Positions 286 through 8,417 of a stretch of 10,949 bases of DNA are shown in pieces. The translations under genes were made by a program, and so were the position numbers. The notes beneath the pieces are model-generated. The model had not been told where the DNA came from. It saw only the letters and a list, made by a program, of their open reading frames with translations, and did no database searches. Position 1 is the stretch's first letter; each line of letters opens with the position of its first letter. Source of the stretch: Candidatus Sumerlaeia bacterium (GTDB taxonomy: Bacteria > Sumerlaeota > Sumerlaeia > SLMS01). Location: NCBI GenBank assembly GCA_038208905.1, contig JBBQYG010000141.1, positions 1 to 10,949 of the forward strand. Direction: 5' to 3'.

Positions 286-936
286 CTATTGCACCGTCTG
301 TCCCAGGCCCACGCGATGGTAGGTGCCCATCGCGACCGTTCCCCCGCTGCCGTCCGAGGGGATATCGATCTCCTGGGTGTGCAGCGTGGTGCCGATCAGC
401 CAGGCCTGGCGCGTCTCCAGCCCCTGCGCCGTGGTGCGGATCCAGAAGACCTTGCCGGCCTCGAACCGCCCGGCGAAGGAATCGCTGGCATTGACCGAGG
501 CGGTCGCGCGTGAGGTCAGGCTGCCGTCCTCCAGAATGCGATTCACCCAGGAGTCCACTTCCTCCGGCTTGCCTGCCGTCTTCCGAGTTGTGTGGGCGGT
601 CTGGATGTGTGCGGAGGAAGACCAGTACTCGCGGCGCGACTCGTAGGTGCCAAGTCTTTCGCCCGCGGTGGAGTACACGACTTCCTCGCCAAGCCACACG
701 CCGTCGAACGGCCCAAGGAGCAGTGCCATGGCGTCGCCACGCAGTTGCTCGTCGGTCGGGTTGATGGATCGGGCCACGAAGATGAGGAAGGCGAAGACGA
801 AGAGGGCGCCGAAAATATAGTGGCCCAGGCGGGACATGAGCAGGCGGTTGCCGATTGAGGCCTGGCGACGGTCAGGCTTTTCGGCATCTTCGCCGAGAGC
901 GGCACCGCGGGGTTCAAGAAGGTCGTGGGAGTTCAT
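286..936 (-). CDS. Hypothetical single-pass membrane protein (~216 aa) with a possible calycin/DUF1579-like beta-barrel
   Basis: Part of ORF 286..1122. Likely start ATG 936 (MNSHDLL...), with MSRLGHY as an alternative. Hydrophobic segment YIFGALFVFAFLIFVA is followed by FDGVWLG (GxW-like) and a C-terminal MGTYHR strand. Codon usage looks gene-like. Confidence 0.7.
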   Translation of the reverse strand: MNSHDLLEPRGAALGEDAEKPDRRQASIGNRLLMSRLGHYIFGALFVFAFLIFVARSINPTDEQLRGDAMALLLGPFDGVWLGEEVVYSTAGERLGTYESRREYWSSSAHIQTAHTTRKTAGKPEEVDSWVNRILEDGSLTSRATASVNASDSFAGRFEAGKVFWIRTTAQGLETRQAWLIGTTLHTQEIDIPSDGSGGTVAMGTYHRVGLGQTVQ

Positions 937-1172
937 TAGCCTGGGTGTTGGATGGGGGGCGATCTGTGGTGGAGCGCCGCCGCCGCGGGGGTGTTTCTTT
1001 TCCGGCCGGTACGGACCGTTTTCACTAGCAGGCAAGGCGGGATCGGATGAAAAGCATCCATGCGACCAGCCCCGTCGCCAATCTTCAACCATAGTAAGGG
1101 GACAGCCGGGCAGGTCTGGCAACTGGAAGCGAAGGGGATTCGAATGATTAAGACAAAGGAAGGGATTTCCTG

Positions 1173-3302
1173 ATGGAATTCGCCAGCATTCGTAAGGGCT
1201 TTTCCCTGCTTGCCGCCGGTATTTTCTCTCCTGTTCTCCTGTGCGCCGACCCGGTGCCCGATCCCGCCGCCGCTTACCTGCCGAAGATCGTTCTGGATGA
1301 ATTCAATCCCGACGTGAACGACGCGGCGAGGGCGAATTCGGCGGCTGCGCGCGGGGGGAAGCTCCGCATCCGCACGCCTGTCGATTACCAGCACCTCAAC
1401 AACCTCACCGTCACCGGCCAGCCAGAGCGCGTGGTCATCAACCACATGTCCGATTCGCTCGTGGACCAGGACTTCGAGACGCTCGAGTACTATCCCGAGA
1501 TGGCGTGGAGCTGGCGCGAGGCGGACCTGATCAAGACCAAGACCGGCGAGCAGGAAATCGGCCGCATCGTTGCACGCGACGCCGACACGGTGACCTTTGT
1601 GGCCGGCGCGTGGAAGACGACCTTTGGCAAGTTCGATGTGGTGCCGCCCGCCGAAGGCGCGACGCACGTTGTCTTGACGGAGCAGTGGGGCGGCGAGAAA
1701 TACGAAGGTCGCCTGCGCATCCGCCAGCACACGATCCAAGTGGACGCGGGTTTTGATTCTGCGCTCGCCGCCGGCGCGCGCAAAATCGCCATCGCGGAGC
1801 TGGACACGTGGGAGTTTCGGATCGGCACGGTGTCGGAAACGCGCCCCTTCGCCAAGGAGGCCGTGGTCTTCGACTTCCGCATTCGCCCCGGGGTCACCTG
1901 GAGCGACGGCGAGCCCTTCACCGCCGAGGACGTGAAGTTCAGTTACCAGACCCTCGTGAATCCCGCCGTCGATGCCCAGTCCCTTCGCAACCACTACGAG
2001 GATGTCGAGAGCTGCGAAGTCACCGATGGCGGCAAGAGCGTCGTGTTCAAGTACCGCAAGACATACTTCCAGGCACTCTCCTTCCTCGGCGGGCGCACGG
2101 GCGCCAGCTACTTCGTGCCGCGGCACATCTTCAAGCCCGAGCAATTTGGCGGCGACGAGAAGGCATTCGCCGAGGCCTTCAACAAGAGCGAGTTCAAGGA
2201 GCGCCCCGTCTATACAGGCCCGTACCGCCTGAAGGAATGGCGCCGCGAGGACAGCCTGACGATCACGCGGAACGAGAAGTACTGGAAGAACAACCTGCCC
2301 GATGGGGCCATCGCCAAGTGGAAGAAGGGCCAGCCCTGGCTCGACGAGATCACGTGGACGGTGTACAAGGAATCCGCCGCATCGACCAAGGATCTCCTGC
2401 GCGGCGTTCTCGACGTGGACCTCGACGTGGAGCCCTCCACCTGGGTGCAGGCCGACACGAACACGCCGGAGTTCCTCGCCGCGATGACGCGCGCGGAGAA
2501 GATCGGGTTTCTCTACACGTATATCGGCTGGAACCTGACCCGCCCGATCTTCCAGGACAAGCGCACCCGCCGCGCGCTGGCGATGCTGATCCCGCGGGAG
2601 GACATCTGCCGGAGCGTCCACCACGGCGTCGCCTTTCCCGTCGACGGCCCCATGTTCGTCAACGGACCCGGCTACGACAAGACGGTGAAGCCGATCGCCT
2701 ACGACCTCGCCGCAGGGCGCCGGGAGCTGGCCCGCGCGGGCTGGCTCGACCGCGACGGCGACGGCATCCTTGAGAAGAACATCGACGGCCAGATGGTCCC
2801 GCTCTCCTTTACCTACTCCATCCACAACGCCCGCGACTATCACCAGAAAATCGCGGACATCATCAAGGAGAGCGTCGAACAGGCGGGCATCCGCATGACG
2901 ATCCTCAAGAGCGACTGGACGATCTTCTCCACCACCGTGAAGGATAAGAATTTCGACGCCGTGCGCTTTGCCTGGGGCACCGAGATAGAGCCCGACCCGT
3001 TCCAGATTTTCCACAGCAGCCAGATGGAAAACAAGGGCGACAACTTCGTCTCCTACAAGAACGAGCGAGTGGACGAACTGTGCGTCCGCATCCGCGAAAC
3101 CCTCGACCCCGTCGCCCGTTGGGAGATGGCCCGCGAGGTCCACCGCCTCATCGCCGAGGACCAGCCTTATTGCTTTCTCGAGGGCTTCAAGGAAACCTAC
3201 TTCATCAACCGAAAGCTCCGCGGCGTGAAGCTCTACCCCGACCAGTACACCCACGATTTCACCGAGTGGTATTGGTCAGCGGTTCCGGAGAACAGGCGCT
3301 GA
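1173..3302 (+). CDS. ABC transporter peptide/nickel-family substrate-binding protein (SBP family 5, AppA/OppA-like), 709 aa
   Basis: Motifs RGGKLRI, PEMAWSW, FRIRPGVTWSDGEPFTAEDVKFSY, PVYTGPYRLKEW, YIGWNLTRPIFQDKRTRRALAM, WLDRDGDGILEK and NFVSYKNERVDEL. N-terminal signal-like hydrophobic stretch. Purine-rich RBS (AAAGGAAGGGA) upstream of ATG 1173. Confidence 0.93.
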   Translation: MEFASIRKGFSLLAAGIFSPVLLCADPVPDPAAAYLPKIVLDEFNPDVNDAARANSAAARGGKLRIRTPVDYQHLNNLTVTGQPERVVINHMSDSLVDQDFETLEYYPEMAWSWREADLIKTKTGEQEIGRIVARDADTVTFVAGAWKTTFGKFDVVPPAEGATHVVLTEQWGGEKYEGRLRIRQHTIQVDAGFDSALAAGARKIAIAELDTWEFRIGTVSETRPFAKEAVVFDFRIRPGVTWSDGEPFTAEDVKFSYQTLVNPAVDAQSLRNHYEDVESCEVTDGGKSVVFKYRKTYFQALSFLGGRTGASYFVPRHIFKPEQFGGDEKAFAEAFNKSEFKERPVYTGPYRLKEWRREDSLTITRNEKYWKNNLPDGAIAKWKKGQPWLDEITWTVYKESAASTKDLLRGVLDVDLDVEPSTWVQADTNTPEFLAAMTRAEKIGFLYTYIGWNLTRPIFQDKRTRRALAMLIPREDICRSVHHGVAFPVDGPMFVNGPGYDKTVKPIAYDLAAGRRELARAGWLDRDGDGILEKNIDGQMVPLSFTYSIHNARDYHQKIADIIKESVEQAGIRMTILKSDWTIFSTTVKDKNFDAVRFAWGTEIEPDPFQIFHSSQMENKGDNFVSYKNERVDELCVRIRETLDPVARWEMAREVHRLIAEDQPYCFLEGFKETYFINRKLRGVKLYPDQYTHDFTEWYWSAVPENRR

Positions 3303-3390: not shown

Positions 3391-6846
<3,456 letters not shown>

Positions 6847-6860
6847 GGGAGGTTATCCTG

Positions 6861-6888
6861 GGGAATGGGGAATTGGGAATCGGGAATG
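6861..6888 (+). repeat. Heptamer tandem repeat (GGGAATN)x4
   Basis: gggaatg gggaatt gggaatc gggaatg, immediately upstream of the secA RBS. Confidence 0.85.
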
Positions 6889-6897
6889 GGACGGATG

Positions 6898-6921
6898 AAG
6901 AGCTGAGATTAAGAGCTGAGA
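6898..6921 (+). repeat. 11-bp direct repeat AAGAGCTGAGA x2 (13-nt period)
   Basis: Copies at 6898-6908 and 6911-6921. Confidence 0.8.
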
Positions 6922-6953
6922 CGAAGCATTGGGGACGGATCGGTTACGCCATC

Positions 6954-6982
6954 ATTCTATCCAAGCTTCCGGCGTTCGTCCC
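6954..6982 (-). promoter_or_regulatory. Candidate sigma70-type promoter for secA
   Basis: Minus strand GGGACG-N17-TAGAAT. The -10 matches consensus at 5/6 and the -35 is weak. Confidence 0.4.
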
Positions 6983-7007
6983 TTATCCCTCAGCCCTCAT
7001 CCCTTCT
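6980..7007 (+). repeat. Degenerate heptamer repeat (CCCTYMN)x4 overlapping the ogt 3' end
   Basis: cccttat ccctcag ccctcat cccttct. Encodes the ogt C-terminal EGMRAEG and its stop codon. Confidence 0.6.
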
Positions 7008-7531
7008 TTCTGGAGGAGCCATCGCTTCATTTCCGTTCCGCCGCCGTATTTCCCGATGCCGCCGGTGGAGGGGACCACGCGGTGGCAGGGGACCAGGAGG
7101 GGGATCGGGTTGGTGGACATGGCGCGGGCGGCGGCGCGGACAGCGCCCGGGTTTCCGGAGAGCCGGGCGAGTTCCGCGTAGCTCAAGGTGGAGCCGCGGG
7201 AAATCGCATGGCATCGACGGAGGACCGTGGCGGTGAACGCGGGGGCCTGGGGGAATTCGATGGGGATGTCGGAAACGTCGTCTCCGCGCAGGAAGAGCGA
7301 TTTCAGGCGGGTCGCCACCTCCGCTGCGCGGCCACCCTCGCGGGGGTCGGCGTCGGGTTGGGTGAAGATCGATCTGTGGATCGATTCCCGCTTTGCATCG
7401 CTCTTCACGGGAAGCCACACGCGCATGGCGTTGGCCCCCCGGCAGAGGACGTATCCGATTCCGAAAATCCCCGCGCCATAGGGCGCCCAGGACCACACCG
7501 GAGCCGGCCGGTCAGGCGCGCGGCGGACCAC
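6983..7531 (-). CDS. ogt: Methylated-DNA--[protein]-cysteine S-methyltransferase (MGMT/Ogt)
   Basis: AFTATVL...ISRGSTLSYAELARLSGNPGAVRAAARAMSTNPIPLLVPCHRVV...IGKYGGGTEMKRWLL, with the PCHRV active site. The start is uncertain (GTG 7531, GTG 7498 or ATG 7606). The longer starts overlap the upstream RGPP ORF extensively. Confidence 0.92.
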   Translation of the reverse strand: MVRRAPDRPAPVWSWAPYGAGIFGIGYVLCRGANAMRVWLPVKSDAKRESIHRSIFTQPDADPREGGRAAEVATRLKSLFLRGDDVSDIPIEFPQAPAFTATVLRRCHAISRGSTLSYAELARLSGNPGAVRAAARAMSTNPIPLLVPCHRVVPSTGGIGKYGGGTEMKRWLLQKEGMRAEG

Positions 7532-7898
7532 GGGTAGTCGCCTGCGACTGGGTTTGGGTTGCGGGGAGTGCTTGATTGCCGGGGAGCGTCGCGGCGACGC
7601 GGGCATTGCGCGCAAGGGCGGCCACGCCGGCCGCGGCGTGGGCGCCGTGGTGGGTGTGCAGGCCGATGCGCCCGGGCTCGCGGTGGTCGTCGTGGGCGAC
7701 CTCCAGGACTGAACGGTCCTGACGGCGCTCGCGGTCGGCGGGAAAGGCTCGGATCTCGGTGGTGGCCTCGCGCGCCATGATCCGGTTGGCCGGGATCATC
7801 CCGAGCGAGAAGGCACACGTCGCCGCCAACGGAATGATCACAATCCCAATGAAGAGCGGGGTGCGGTCAAAGAAGGATGTTGGCAAGGGGCGACTCAT
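7512..7898 (-). CDS. 128-aa membrane/secreted protein ending in RGPP; candidate ribosome-arrest (monitoring) peptide
   Basis: 3' half of ORF 7512..8258, from ATG 7898: MSRPLPTSFFDRTPLFIGIVIIPLAATCAFSLGMIPA...HDDH...HTHHGAH...QSQATTRGPPRA*. Codons in this frame mostly end in G/C. TTGACA lies 33 nt upstream. N-terminal hydrophobic segment, and RGPP two residues before the stop. Confidence 0.72.
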   Translation of the reverse strand: MSRPLPTSFFDRTPLFIGIVIIPLAATCAFSLGMIPANRIMAREATTEIRAFPADRERRQDRSVLEVAHDDHREPGRIGLHTHHGAHAAAGVAALARNARVAATLPGNQALPATQTQSQATTRGPPRA

Positions 7899-7931
7899 GG
7901 CAGGCGCTACAAGGCCCGCCGGGGGCCGGGC

Positions 7932-7987
7932 TGTCAAGGATTGCGGGCATAATCCCGCATTGACGGGCGGGGGAAGGGTGGTATTTT
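7932..7987. promoter_or_regulatory. Divergent promoter region with a central inverted repeat
   Basis: Plus strand: TTGACG (7960-7965)-N16-TATTTT (7982-7987) with a TGn extension. Minus strand: perfect TTGACA (7937-7932) but a poor -10. Between them lies TGCGGG-CATAAT-CCCGCA (7942-7959). Confidence 0.55.
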
Positions 7988-8045
7988 GGCGAGGTTGGGA
8001 ACAATGGATGGGGTGGAAAAAGTCGGATTGGAAAGGAATGTGGCC

Positions 8046-8249
8046 ATGAGGTGGCAGGACCACATTGCACAGGATCCCGATGTGATGCTCGGCAAACCCT
8101 GCATCGTCGGAACCCGGCTGACAGTCGAGTTGATACTCGACAAGCTCGGCCACGACATCACCTATGAGCAGTTGATGGCTTCCTATCCGGTTCTTCGGAC
8201 CGAGCACATTCAGGCGGCGCAGGCGTTTGCGGCGGTGGTTCCAAGGTAG
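8046..8249 (+). CDS. DUF433 domain protein (putative antitoxin-like wHTH), 67 aa
   Basis: MRWQDHIAQDPDVMLGKPCIVGTRLTVELILDKLGHDITYEQLMASYPVLRTEHIQAAQAFAA matches the DUF433 pattern I..dP....GkP.i.GTR..V..il........eei...YP.L....i.aa..fa. GAAAGGA RBS before ATG 8046. Confidence 0.9.
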   Translation: MRWQDHIAQDPDVMLGKPCIVGTRLTVELILDKLGHDITYEQLMASYPVLRTEHIQAAQAFAAVVPR

Positions 8250-8335
8250 CGTGGGCATCTCGCCCGCGCATTGGCAGTTATCGGTTTCCGCGTGGCCTTG
8301 ACAGTTCCCAGCGCGGGCGAGACGCCCACGCTACC
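8245..8335. repeat. GTAG-type REP doublet (REPIN-like inverted repeat), probably also a terminator
   Basis: GGTAGCGTGGGCATCTCGCCCGCGC (8245-8269) and GCGCGGGCGAGACGCCCACGCTACC (8311-8335) are 24/25 reverse-complementary. Each arm begins with GTAG followed by an internal palindrome. The spacer is 41 nt, and CTTTT follows the right arm. Confidence 0.8.
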
Positions 8336-8417
8336 CTTTTAGTCGATACGGTTTTTCGTGGTGCGCCGAGGGATCGGCCGAGAAAACTTGCCAAAGCCGG
8401 GAGGAACCCCCACCGCC

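Follow-up and report, generated by a model that had tools for sequence, protein, structure and literature searches.

How could a peptide that arrests its own ribosome govern a gene that does not lie next to it? To our knowledge, the characterised monitors of Sec and YidC (SecM, MifM, VemP, and one member of the RQH class) act by unmasking the ribosome-binding site of the adjacent gene. The DNA analysed here is a 10,949-nt stretch of a Candidatus Sumerlaeia bacterium (contig JBBQYG010000141.1, hereafter the window), in which a small upstream open reading frame (uORF) ending in a putative arrest motif is separated from secA by the alkyltransferase gene ogt. The family to which this uORF belongs cannot unmask an adjacent secA site in 22 of 24 genomes. 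We propose, with a probability of roughly 0.42, that the uORF stalls its own ribosome until Sec pulls on the chain, and that the stall covers the ogt start and raises secA at the transcript level.

The uORF occupies positions 7512..7898 of the minus strand and encodes 128 aa, from the ATG at 7898 to the TGA at 7512. Residues 15-35 are hydrophobic, and the C-terminus consists of RGPP followed by two residues. Downstream on the same strand lie ogt, recognised by its PF01035 match (stop at 6983), and then secA (6846-3391). The initial annotation had described a 128-aa frame with a hydrophobic N-terminus and RGPP near its stop at the head of a same-strand ORF-ogt-secA run, and the window reads exactly so. 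In the genome of the window (G000), there are 20,417 stop-to-stop frames that reach 100 aa. R[AG]PP stands within eight residues of the stop in 54 of them (0.26%), and among these 54 the uORF is the sole frame with a hydrophobic N-terminus; because such endings are few and no other is preceded by a hydrophobic N-terminus, the uORF is more than a chance frame. Third codon positions dominate the divergence in five of five close orthologue pairs (28, 21, and 71 mismatches at codon positions 1, 2, and 3 for the pair G001/G009), and the motif is written with all Gly codons, all Pro codons, and five Arg codons. Coding status follows from this third-position bias and from the varied synonymous codons of the motif. 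At E ≤ 0.1, any one Pfam or NCBIfam family had matches in at most one of 23 uORF members. The orthologues are small frames of 128-167 aa that carry no annotated function, and the Atlas model of the uORF protein (pTM 0.21, no feature match) gives no signal of a folded domain. The uORF is a real, order-wide coding leader gene.

One Sumerlaeota order is represented by 25 genomes, and 24 of them have an orthologue upstream of secA; in the 25th, G017, the contig ends after ogt. A search with the single protein matched all ten genomes of the same family, and a profile search had matches in 21 of the order's 25 genomes (G000 is one of the 21) and two chance matches among 50 others. Reading upstream of secA in the four profile misses gave three more orthologues. 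Matches in G054 and G039 (single protein) and in G041 and G047, as well as a second match in G024 (profile), had neither an adjoining ogt or secA nor the motif and were dropped as chance. Pattern searching of the genome contigs with the uORF gave no matches. Among the genomic orthologues, which come from related genomes and are not independent samples, linkage to secA is complete (24/24) and linkage to ogt nearly so (22/24). Two database searches returned 13 and 56 protein matches, and 49 of 60 database homologues differ from the genomic set in their last 40 residues, some only slightly.

Only three parts of the protein are conserved within the family: the hydrophobic segment, a [DE]RxRR cluster, and the motif, with mean top-residue frequencies of 0.50, 0.49, and 0.95, respectively. 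The spacer is barely alignable (0.24-0.25). One check suggested beforehand was whether the motif is kept while the spacer diverges, and it is, in 24 of 24 orthologues. The proposed layout of a monitoring substrate tied to secA, with a signal or transmembrane segment, a spacer, and R[GA]PP, is likewise conserved in all 24. Compared with the N-terminal part of SecA, the uORF has a rate of evolution roughly three times as high (median end branch 1.28 vs 0.42; the SecA tree was built without G009, G010, G011, and G023, whose sequences were too short), yet its motif takes no other form than RGPP or RAPP.

In the window, the RGPP motif comprises codons 123-126 (7521..7532, minus strand), with the predicted P-site codon at 7526-7524. 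Either RGPP (18 genomes) or RAPP (six) stands one to seven residues before the stop in all 24 genomic orthologues. The motif is also present in 49 of 49 further database proteins (RGPP 38, RAPP 11), a set biased by its selection with the profile. Among 72 distinct sequences there are 56 with RGPP and 16 with RAPP; P0056, in which the Arg cluster was not located, was left out of this set. In six of the first ten matches of the single-protein search the matched stretch stopped short of the motif, whose presence there is thus not an effect of selection by the search. RGPP and RAPP are the two strongest arrest cores reported in the available text of PMC12992588. In the RQH family, as the accessible part of PMC10987492 describes it, arrest depends on the Arg and Pro residues and is relieved by export, and the third motif residue occupies the P site; on this precedent the stall is assigned to the first Pro of R-G/A-P-P. 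The G000 proteome contains RAPP at 0.40 and RGPP at 0.37 of the expected frequency, vs 1.69 for AAPP; the depletion of AGPP (0.46) is about the same as that of RGPP, which weighs against the explanation preferred here. The uORF is, by prediction, highly likely to be an arrest peptide. It resembles the RQH class (uA_RQH; ApdA, ApdP; Fujiwara et al. 2024, PMC10987492), as far as the available text sets out that class, in being a small, unannotated, order-restricted, and secA-linked protein with an N-terminal localisation signal, a long variable spacer, and a C-terminal RGPP or RAPP. Judged from its sequence, it very probably works as the Sec-monitoring arrest peptides of that class do.

The N-terminal hydrophobic segment (residues 15-35; 7794..7856, minus strand) contains an invariant Pro-Leu and may be a signal peptide or a signal anchor. 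Assessed by hydropathy only, its best 15-residue Kyte-Doolittle mean is 2.1-2.7 in 24 of 24 orthologues, and the charge of the preceding n-region is positive in 20 and zero in four. From the Pro-Leu to the P site there are 100-120 residues, beyond the minimum of 30 taken for a spacer. A lipoprotein reading of the uORF was rejected, as Cys occurs in only 73% of 48 sequences.

A second element, at residues 49-59 (7722..7754, minus strand), consists of a short hydrophobic stretch followed by the [DE]RxRR cluster and is a predicted speed-bump or timer at the translocon. In every one of the 24 orthologues, including the three found by synteny, 69-78 residues separate the Arg cluster from the P-site Pro further on (SD 2.7). 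The distance is 67-80 residues in 48 of 49 other homologues, a figure partly constrained by the profile. The hydrophobic stretch has a mean hydropathy of 2.2-2.7 and is found at positions -4 to -2 before the cluster. Inside the cluster, Arg outnumbers Lys by 172 to 4, vs 987 to 118 overall. The length from cluster to P site is about five times less dispersed than the preceding, neighbouring segment (bootstrap 2.7-9.4; 19 genomes, after five close relatives were dropped). VemP of Vibrio, as described in the available texts, has a short hydrophobic segment at residues 78-81, then Arg-85, and arrests at codon 156, 71 residues further on; it resists release at SecY only with Arg and not with Lys (PMC7793623, PMC11470409). 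The uORF shares with it a short hydrophobic segment and then Arg, not Lys, about 71 residues before the P site, but it differs in sequence and in arrest motif, and its Arg cluster is flanked by acidic residues. Since the sequences are unrelated, the likeness between this element and that of VemP Arg-85 is one of geometry, from which a similar function may be supposed by analogy. The match in distance may be a coincidence because VemP is compacted in the tunnel, according to the same sources (PMC7793623, PMC11470409). The VemP element makes release dependent on SecDF and PpiD, and SecDF is encoded in five of five genomes tested here. Two further features recur in the uORF family, an acidic stretch after the Arg cluster (offsets -66..-50 from the P site) and an Ala-rich, weakly hydrophobic stretch at offsets -40..-34, approximately at the tunnel exit.

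The gene directly below the uORF, ogt, encodes an O6-alkylguanine alkyltransferase (6983..7531, minus strand; start GTG 7531 or 7498; PF01035, E 2e-27). In 22 of 22 genomes the chosen ogt start overlaps or abuts the uORF stop and lies -5 to +28 nt from the predicted P-site codon, and the first conserved Trp column of Ogt lies at +29..+41 nt in 21 of 22, whatever start is chosen. A stalled ribosome covers up to about +15 to +18, and an initiating ribosome needs about 20 nt upstream of its start. With its start under the stalled ribosome, ogt would thus be unable to initiate while the arrest lasts, and coupling would allow its synthesis once the arrest is relieved. Such a position, which the initial annotation did not remark on, rules out the SecM hairpin geometry for ogt. 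The frame of ogt relative to the uORF is +1 in ten genomes and +2 in 12, and a frameshift fusion of the two was rejected because of this variation.

The history of the operon bears on which gene the uORF may serve. Forty-eight genomes from outside the order were examined upstream of secA, over regions that contig ends sometimes cut short, and ogt was found within 2.5 kb of secA in 12 of the 48 loci, which belong to other orders or classes and to five families (f5 3/3, f6 2/2, f14 3/3, f16 3/3, f18 1/1; one f14 ogt lies about 1.1 kb from secA). It was absent from this position in all 36 loci of eight other families. No R[AG]PP leader was seen at the 12 outside-order ogt-secA loci (ten scanned by script, G026 and G035 by eye), and in a tree their ogt genes cluster according to family. 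Read most simply, these sequences point to an older ogt-secA pair that gained the uORF at its head in a single order. Within the order, two genomes, G003 and G005, have no ogt orthologue that we could find and keep the uORF directly before secA, an arrangement that the initial annotation had suggested looking for. It had also held that ogt was either a later insertion or the direct regulated target. The loci support neither ogt as a later insertion nor ogt as the necessary target, and this either/or is probably wrong, because families without the uORF have ogt-secA and two genomes keep uORF-secA without ogt. G003 (88% complete) and G005 (80% complete) nest in family f1 (support 99/96); in a comparison of one loss with two, p-AU was 0.147. 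Their other PF01035 genes are of the Ada type or generic, and no motif was found upstream of the four such genes scanned. The uORF next to ogt without secA occurs in 0 of 24 genomes. Since G003 and G005 keep uORF-secA without ogt, the uORF follows secA and not ogt, and secA is likely to be its selected target.

secA is present in a single copy (3391..6846, minus strand) and is separated from ogt by a C-rich spacer of 136 nt with short local repeats (6847..6982, minus strand). From the P site to secA there are 556-821 nt in the 22 genomes with ogt, and 136 and 147 nt in G003 and G005, respectively. The last two values resemble the corresponding distance of 82-146 nt in eight of the 991 published secA rows (PMC10987492). 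A -35-like hexamer, TTGACA, lies 39 nt before the uORF ATG (7932..7937, minus strand) and is a putative promoter element. Of the 24 orthologues, 21 have TTGAC at a distance of 35-41 nt upstream of the ATG. The accompanying -10 element is poor, and G000 has no genome-wide peak of TTGAC at that spacing. This arrangement suggests a near-leaderless uORF mRNA, and the same reading of the DNA makes uORF, ogt, and secA presumptive members of one transcript. A secA-proximal promoter had been proposed at 6954-6982. It proves to be a weak match (3+5, that is, 8 of 12 positions, below the scan threshold), and its last T is a G in a contig of 99.3% identity. An internal secA promoter is not conserved among the ogt-secA regions, where TTGAC occurs in 1 of 22 and the weak matches fall at scattered positions.

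How, then, might a stall at the end of the uORF act on secA? Translational models, which are taken up below, failed in the 22 ogt-bearing genomes, and this leaves transcript-level control or localisation. Granted that the uORF is an arrest peptide and that secA is its selected target, the transcript-level route is somewhat the better bet. Rho is encoded in G000, and both RNase J and RNase E in five of five genomes tested. C exceeds G at -90..-30 nt in 23 of 24 genomes, after which G exceeds C in the 5' region of ogt (C>G in 1 of 22); the skew at the uORF end is +0.21, vs a gene-end background of -0.03 ± 0.15. This C-richness is explained by a protein rich in Pro, Ala, and Ser, with little further contribution from the choice of synonymous codons (mean z +0.19 for C-G and +0.26 for YC; positive in 15 of 24). 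Against this route, a gene left untranslated beyond a stall, as ogt would be, is a textbook situation for polarity, and polarity would lower secA.

CruR of Bordetella (DUF2946) is a RAPP leader whose stall blocks Rho, and the available text of PMC9426467 thereby offers a model for control through Rho that tolerates distance. CruR and the uORF have in common a RAPP-type motif at the head of an operon and a C>G stretch at the 3' end of the leader. The uORF differs in having no CXXC, no match to DUF2946, and no long intergenic gap, as the next gene is overlapped, whereas CruR homologues, in the portion of the paper at hand, have long gaps and are not coupled (PMC9426467). CruR is characterised by a rut site at the 3' end of its leader and by Rho-dependent termination; the C>G stretch of the uORF, present in 23 of 24 genomes, does not go beyond amino-acid composition. 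Ribosome stalling also stabilises ermC mRNA, as stated in the part of PMC7509114 available.

In the reading that we prefer, a near-leaderless mRNA would run from the conserved TTGACA promoter through uORF, ogt, and secA, and translation of the uORF would, on close precedent, arrest with the first Pro of R-G/A-P-P in the P site. The N-terminal segment would engage SecYEG and SecA, and the hydrophobic stretch with its Arg cluster, some 70-77 residues upstream and at the mouth of the translocon, would resist export in such a way that only full motor activity frees the arrest. During arrest ogt could not initiate, and it would be translated by coupling after release; the geometry of this step is observed and its effect is expected from it. 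The final steps are the least certain. When export is poor, a ribosome that stays stalled for long may obstruct Rho bound to the C-rich 3' end of the uORF (the CruR precedent), hold off decay that depends on the 5' end (the ermC precedent), or do both, and more transcript may then reach, or survive through, secA. The fullest form of this scheme would be a two-way switch in which one stall silences ogt and raises secA 550-820 nt downstream, through Rho or 5' decay, timed by an independently evolved hydrophobic-plus-Arg element at the VemP distance. We regard it as tentative and somewhat doubtful; if it is true, screens limited to the gene adjoining secA miss a class of long-range monitors.

The arrest might instead set where SecA is made and not how much of it, if the arrested chain tethers the polysome to the translocon and SecA is synthesised at the membrane. 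Such a role has reportedly been ascribed to SecM. Under this explanation the distance to secA becomes irrelevant, ogt is a passenger, and the invariant linkage to secA needs no conserved RNA switch. Against it stands that it has no need of the tight spacing of the Arg cluster or of the hairpin predicted in G003, and we consider it unlikely, though the strongest of the alternatives.

A translational switch on secA could also have been missed by folding, either as long-range pairing across ogt or as an inverter, in which the secA site closes as ribosomes come off ogt. Its classic form is in fact predicted in G003, where the secA Shine-Dalgarno (SD) sequence pairs with the uORF end (P 0.86), masking lowers the opening cost by 5-7 kcal/mol, and the cognate helix comes first among 24. 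The ogt-bearing genomes behave otherwise: cognate pairing from stall to secA has no advantage over non-cognate pairing (p 0.38 and 0.44), and the control for an inverter through the ogt 3' end gives p 0.57 across the 22 genomes. In the same 22, the whole-ensemble opening energy, free minus stalled, has a mean of +0.26 kcal/mol, with a gain of at least 2 kcal/mol on stalling in three, which speak for such a switch; the difference between the ogt-translated and stalled states is -0.56 kcal/mol, with two genomes for and five against, and there is no signal of an SD-sequestering hairpin of secA. G005, which also lacks ogt, has no predicted hairpin switch. Pairing between uORF codons and the ogt start found no support (p 0.11). 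Rfam gave no match at E ≤ 1 within 6700-8400, and the folds of the stall region and the spacer in the window are no more stable than those of shuffled sequences (z +0.95 and +1.60). A translational switch is accordingly improbable for the family, and the route to secA may differ between lineages, because the ogt-less G003 has a predicted SecM-type hairpin.

If ogt itself were regulated, arrest would shut off the alkyltransferase under export or envelope stress and release would turn it on. The start lies under the footprint in 22 of 22 genomes, in both the +1 and +2 frames, the active-site PCHR of the enzyme is intact in all 22, and RAPP/RGPP uORFs precede diverse genes. Opening the ogt start site is also expensive, at 13.6 kcal/mol vs 7.3 kcal/mol for the secA site, yet this cost equals that of mid-gene control sites (13.4 kcal/mol). 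The uORF moreover stays with secA where ogt is missing, as described above for G003 and G005 and for the lack of any uORF-ogt pair without secA. We know of no physiological rationale for arrest control of ogt, and the odds on it are long. Equally long are the odds that the uORF encodes a small membrane or exported protein with no effective arrest in vivo, its motif having another role or forming the ogt ribosome-binding site: the motif alone is not sufficient for arrest (available text of PMC10987492), and its Arg-Gly codons double as an SD-like run in genomes where ogt starts at +5/+7, but the motif is also kept in genomes whose ogt starts at +17..+23, whichever frame ogt is in, and in those without ogt, all its synonymous codons are used, and the protein model gives no signal of a folded domain.

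Set against known systems, the operon geometry and the VemP-like element are what is new; the class of arrest to which the uORF very probably belongs is already known. The RQH screen took the gene in the same orientation upstream of sec and yidC genes, in the available description (PMC10987492), which places RQH members directly upstream of secA, secDF, or yidC. The uORF has this adjacency in G003 and G005 and lacks it in 22 of 24 genomes, where the next gene starts under the footprint instead of the 82-146 nt away seen in eight of the 991 RQH secA rows. The RQH secA table (991 rows) has no Sumerlaeota entry (PMC10987492), and arrest-peptide control would here be extended to a phylum absent from it. 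Like SecM, the uORF is the predicted Sec-monitoring leader of a secA operon, with an SD-sequestering pairing predicted in G003; unlike SecM, to which it has no sequence homology, it carries RGPP or RAPP and not the long RAGP motif, and the ogt-bearing majority has no hairpin switch. VemP controls secDF2 by a hairpin, according to the parts of PMC7793623 and PMC11470409 available, which also sets it apart from the model proposed here. The family provides natural controls, namely two lineages without ogt, one of them with a predicted classic hairpin. It makes testable a question that the accessible text of PMC12992588 leaves open, namely how RAPP/RGPP arrest regulates downstream genes, and the uORF family may be contained in the raw lists of that paper, which are keyed by genome id. 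With its hydrophobic-plus-Arg element some 70 residues from the predicted stall, the family also offers a second example unrelated to VemP, on which it can be asked whether such an element is a general rule for tuning release at the translocon. The literature covered, outside which most subscription papers fall, contains no report of the uORF family, nor of any arrest peptide whose effect reaches past an intervening gene.

Several other features of the locus were noted. Tandem and inverted repeats of 11-14 nt lie at 6861-6919 and 6980-7004, around the ogt-secA spacer, and similar repeats fill the 247-nt ogt-secA spacer of G018. Near its N-terminus, SecA carries an insertion of 130-150 residues (6262-6687, minus strand) resembling the C-terminal domain of acyl-CoA synthetases, which is found in families f1, f3, and f4. 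In G011 (f2) the uORF is present and the insertion is only short, and the uORF therefore looks older than the insertion domain. The secA gene of G023 (L034) is apparently frameshifted near codons 30-40, possibly through an assembly error. In f6 (L077 of G035 and L079 of G026), the SecA N-terminus is divergent and ogt follows a gene resembling a response regulator. At L090 (G051), in another order, a lipoprotein-like ORF with a QAPP/poly-Pro tail lies about 500 nt upstream of secA and is probably unrelated. Elsewhere in the window, a 278-aa ORF at 286-1122 (minus strand) has no Pfam match. A divergent DUF433 gene at 7960-8249 (plus strand) has its own sigma70-like site (7960-7987) and was not found at homologous loci; a 1-nt deletion at 8016 in a near-identical contig suggests that its true start is further downstream. 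A family-5 solute-binding protein of 709 aa is encoded at 1173-3302 (plus strand) and converges on secA.
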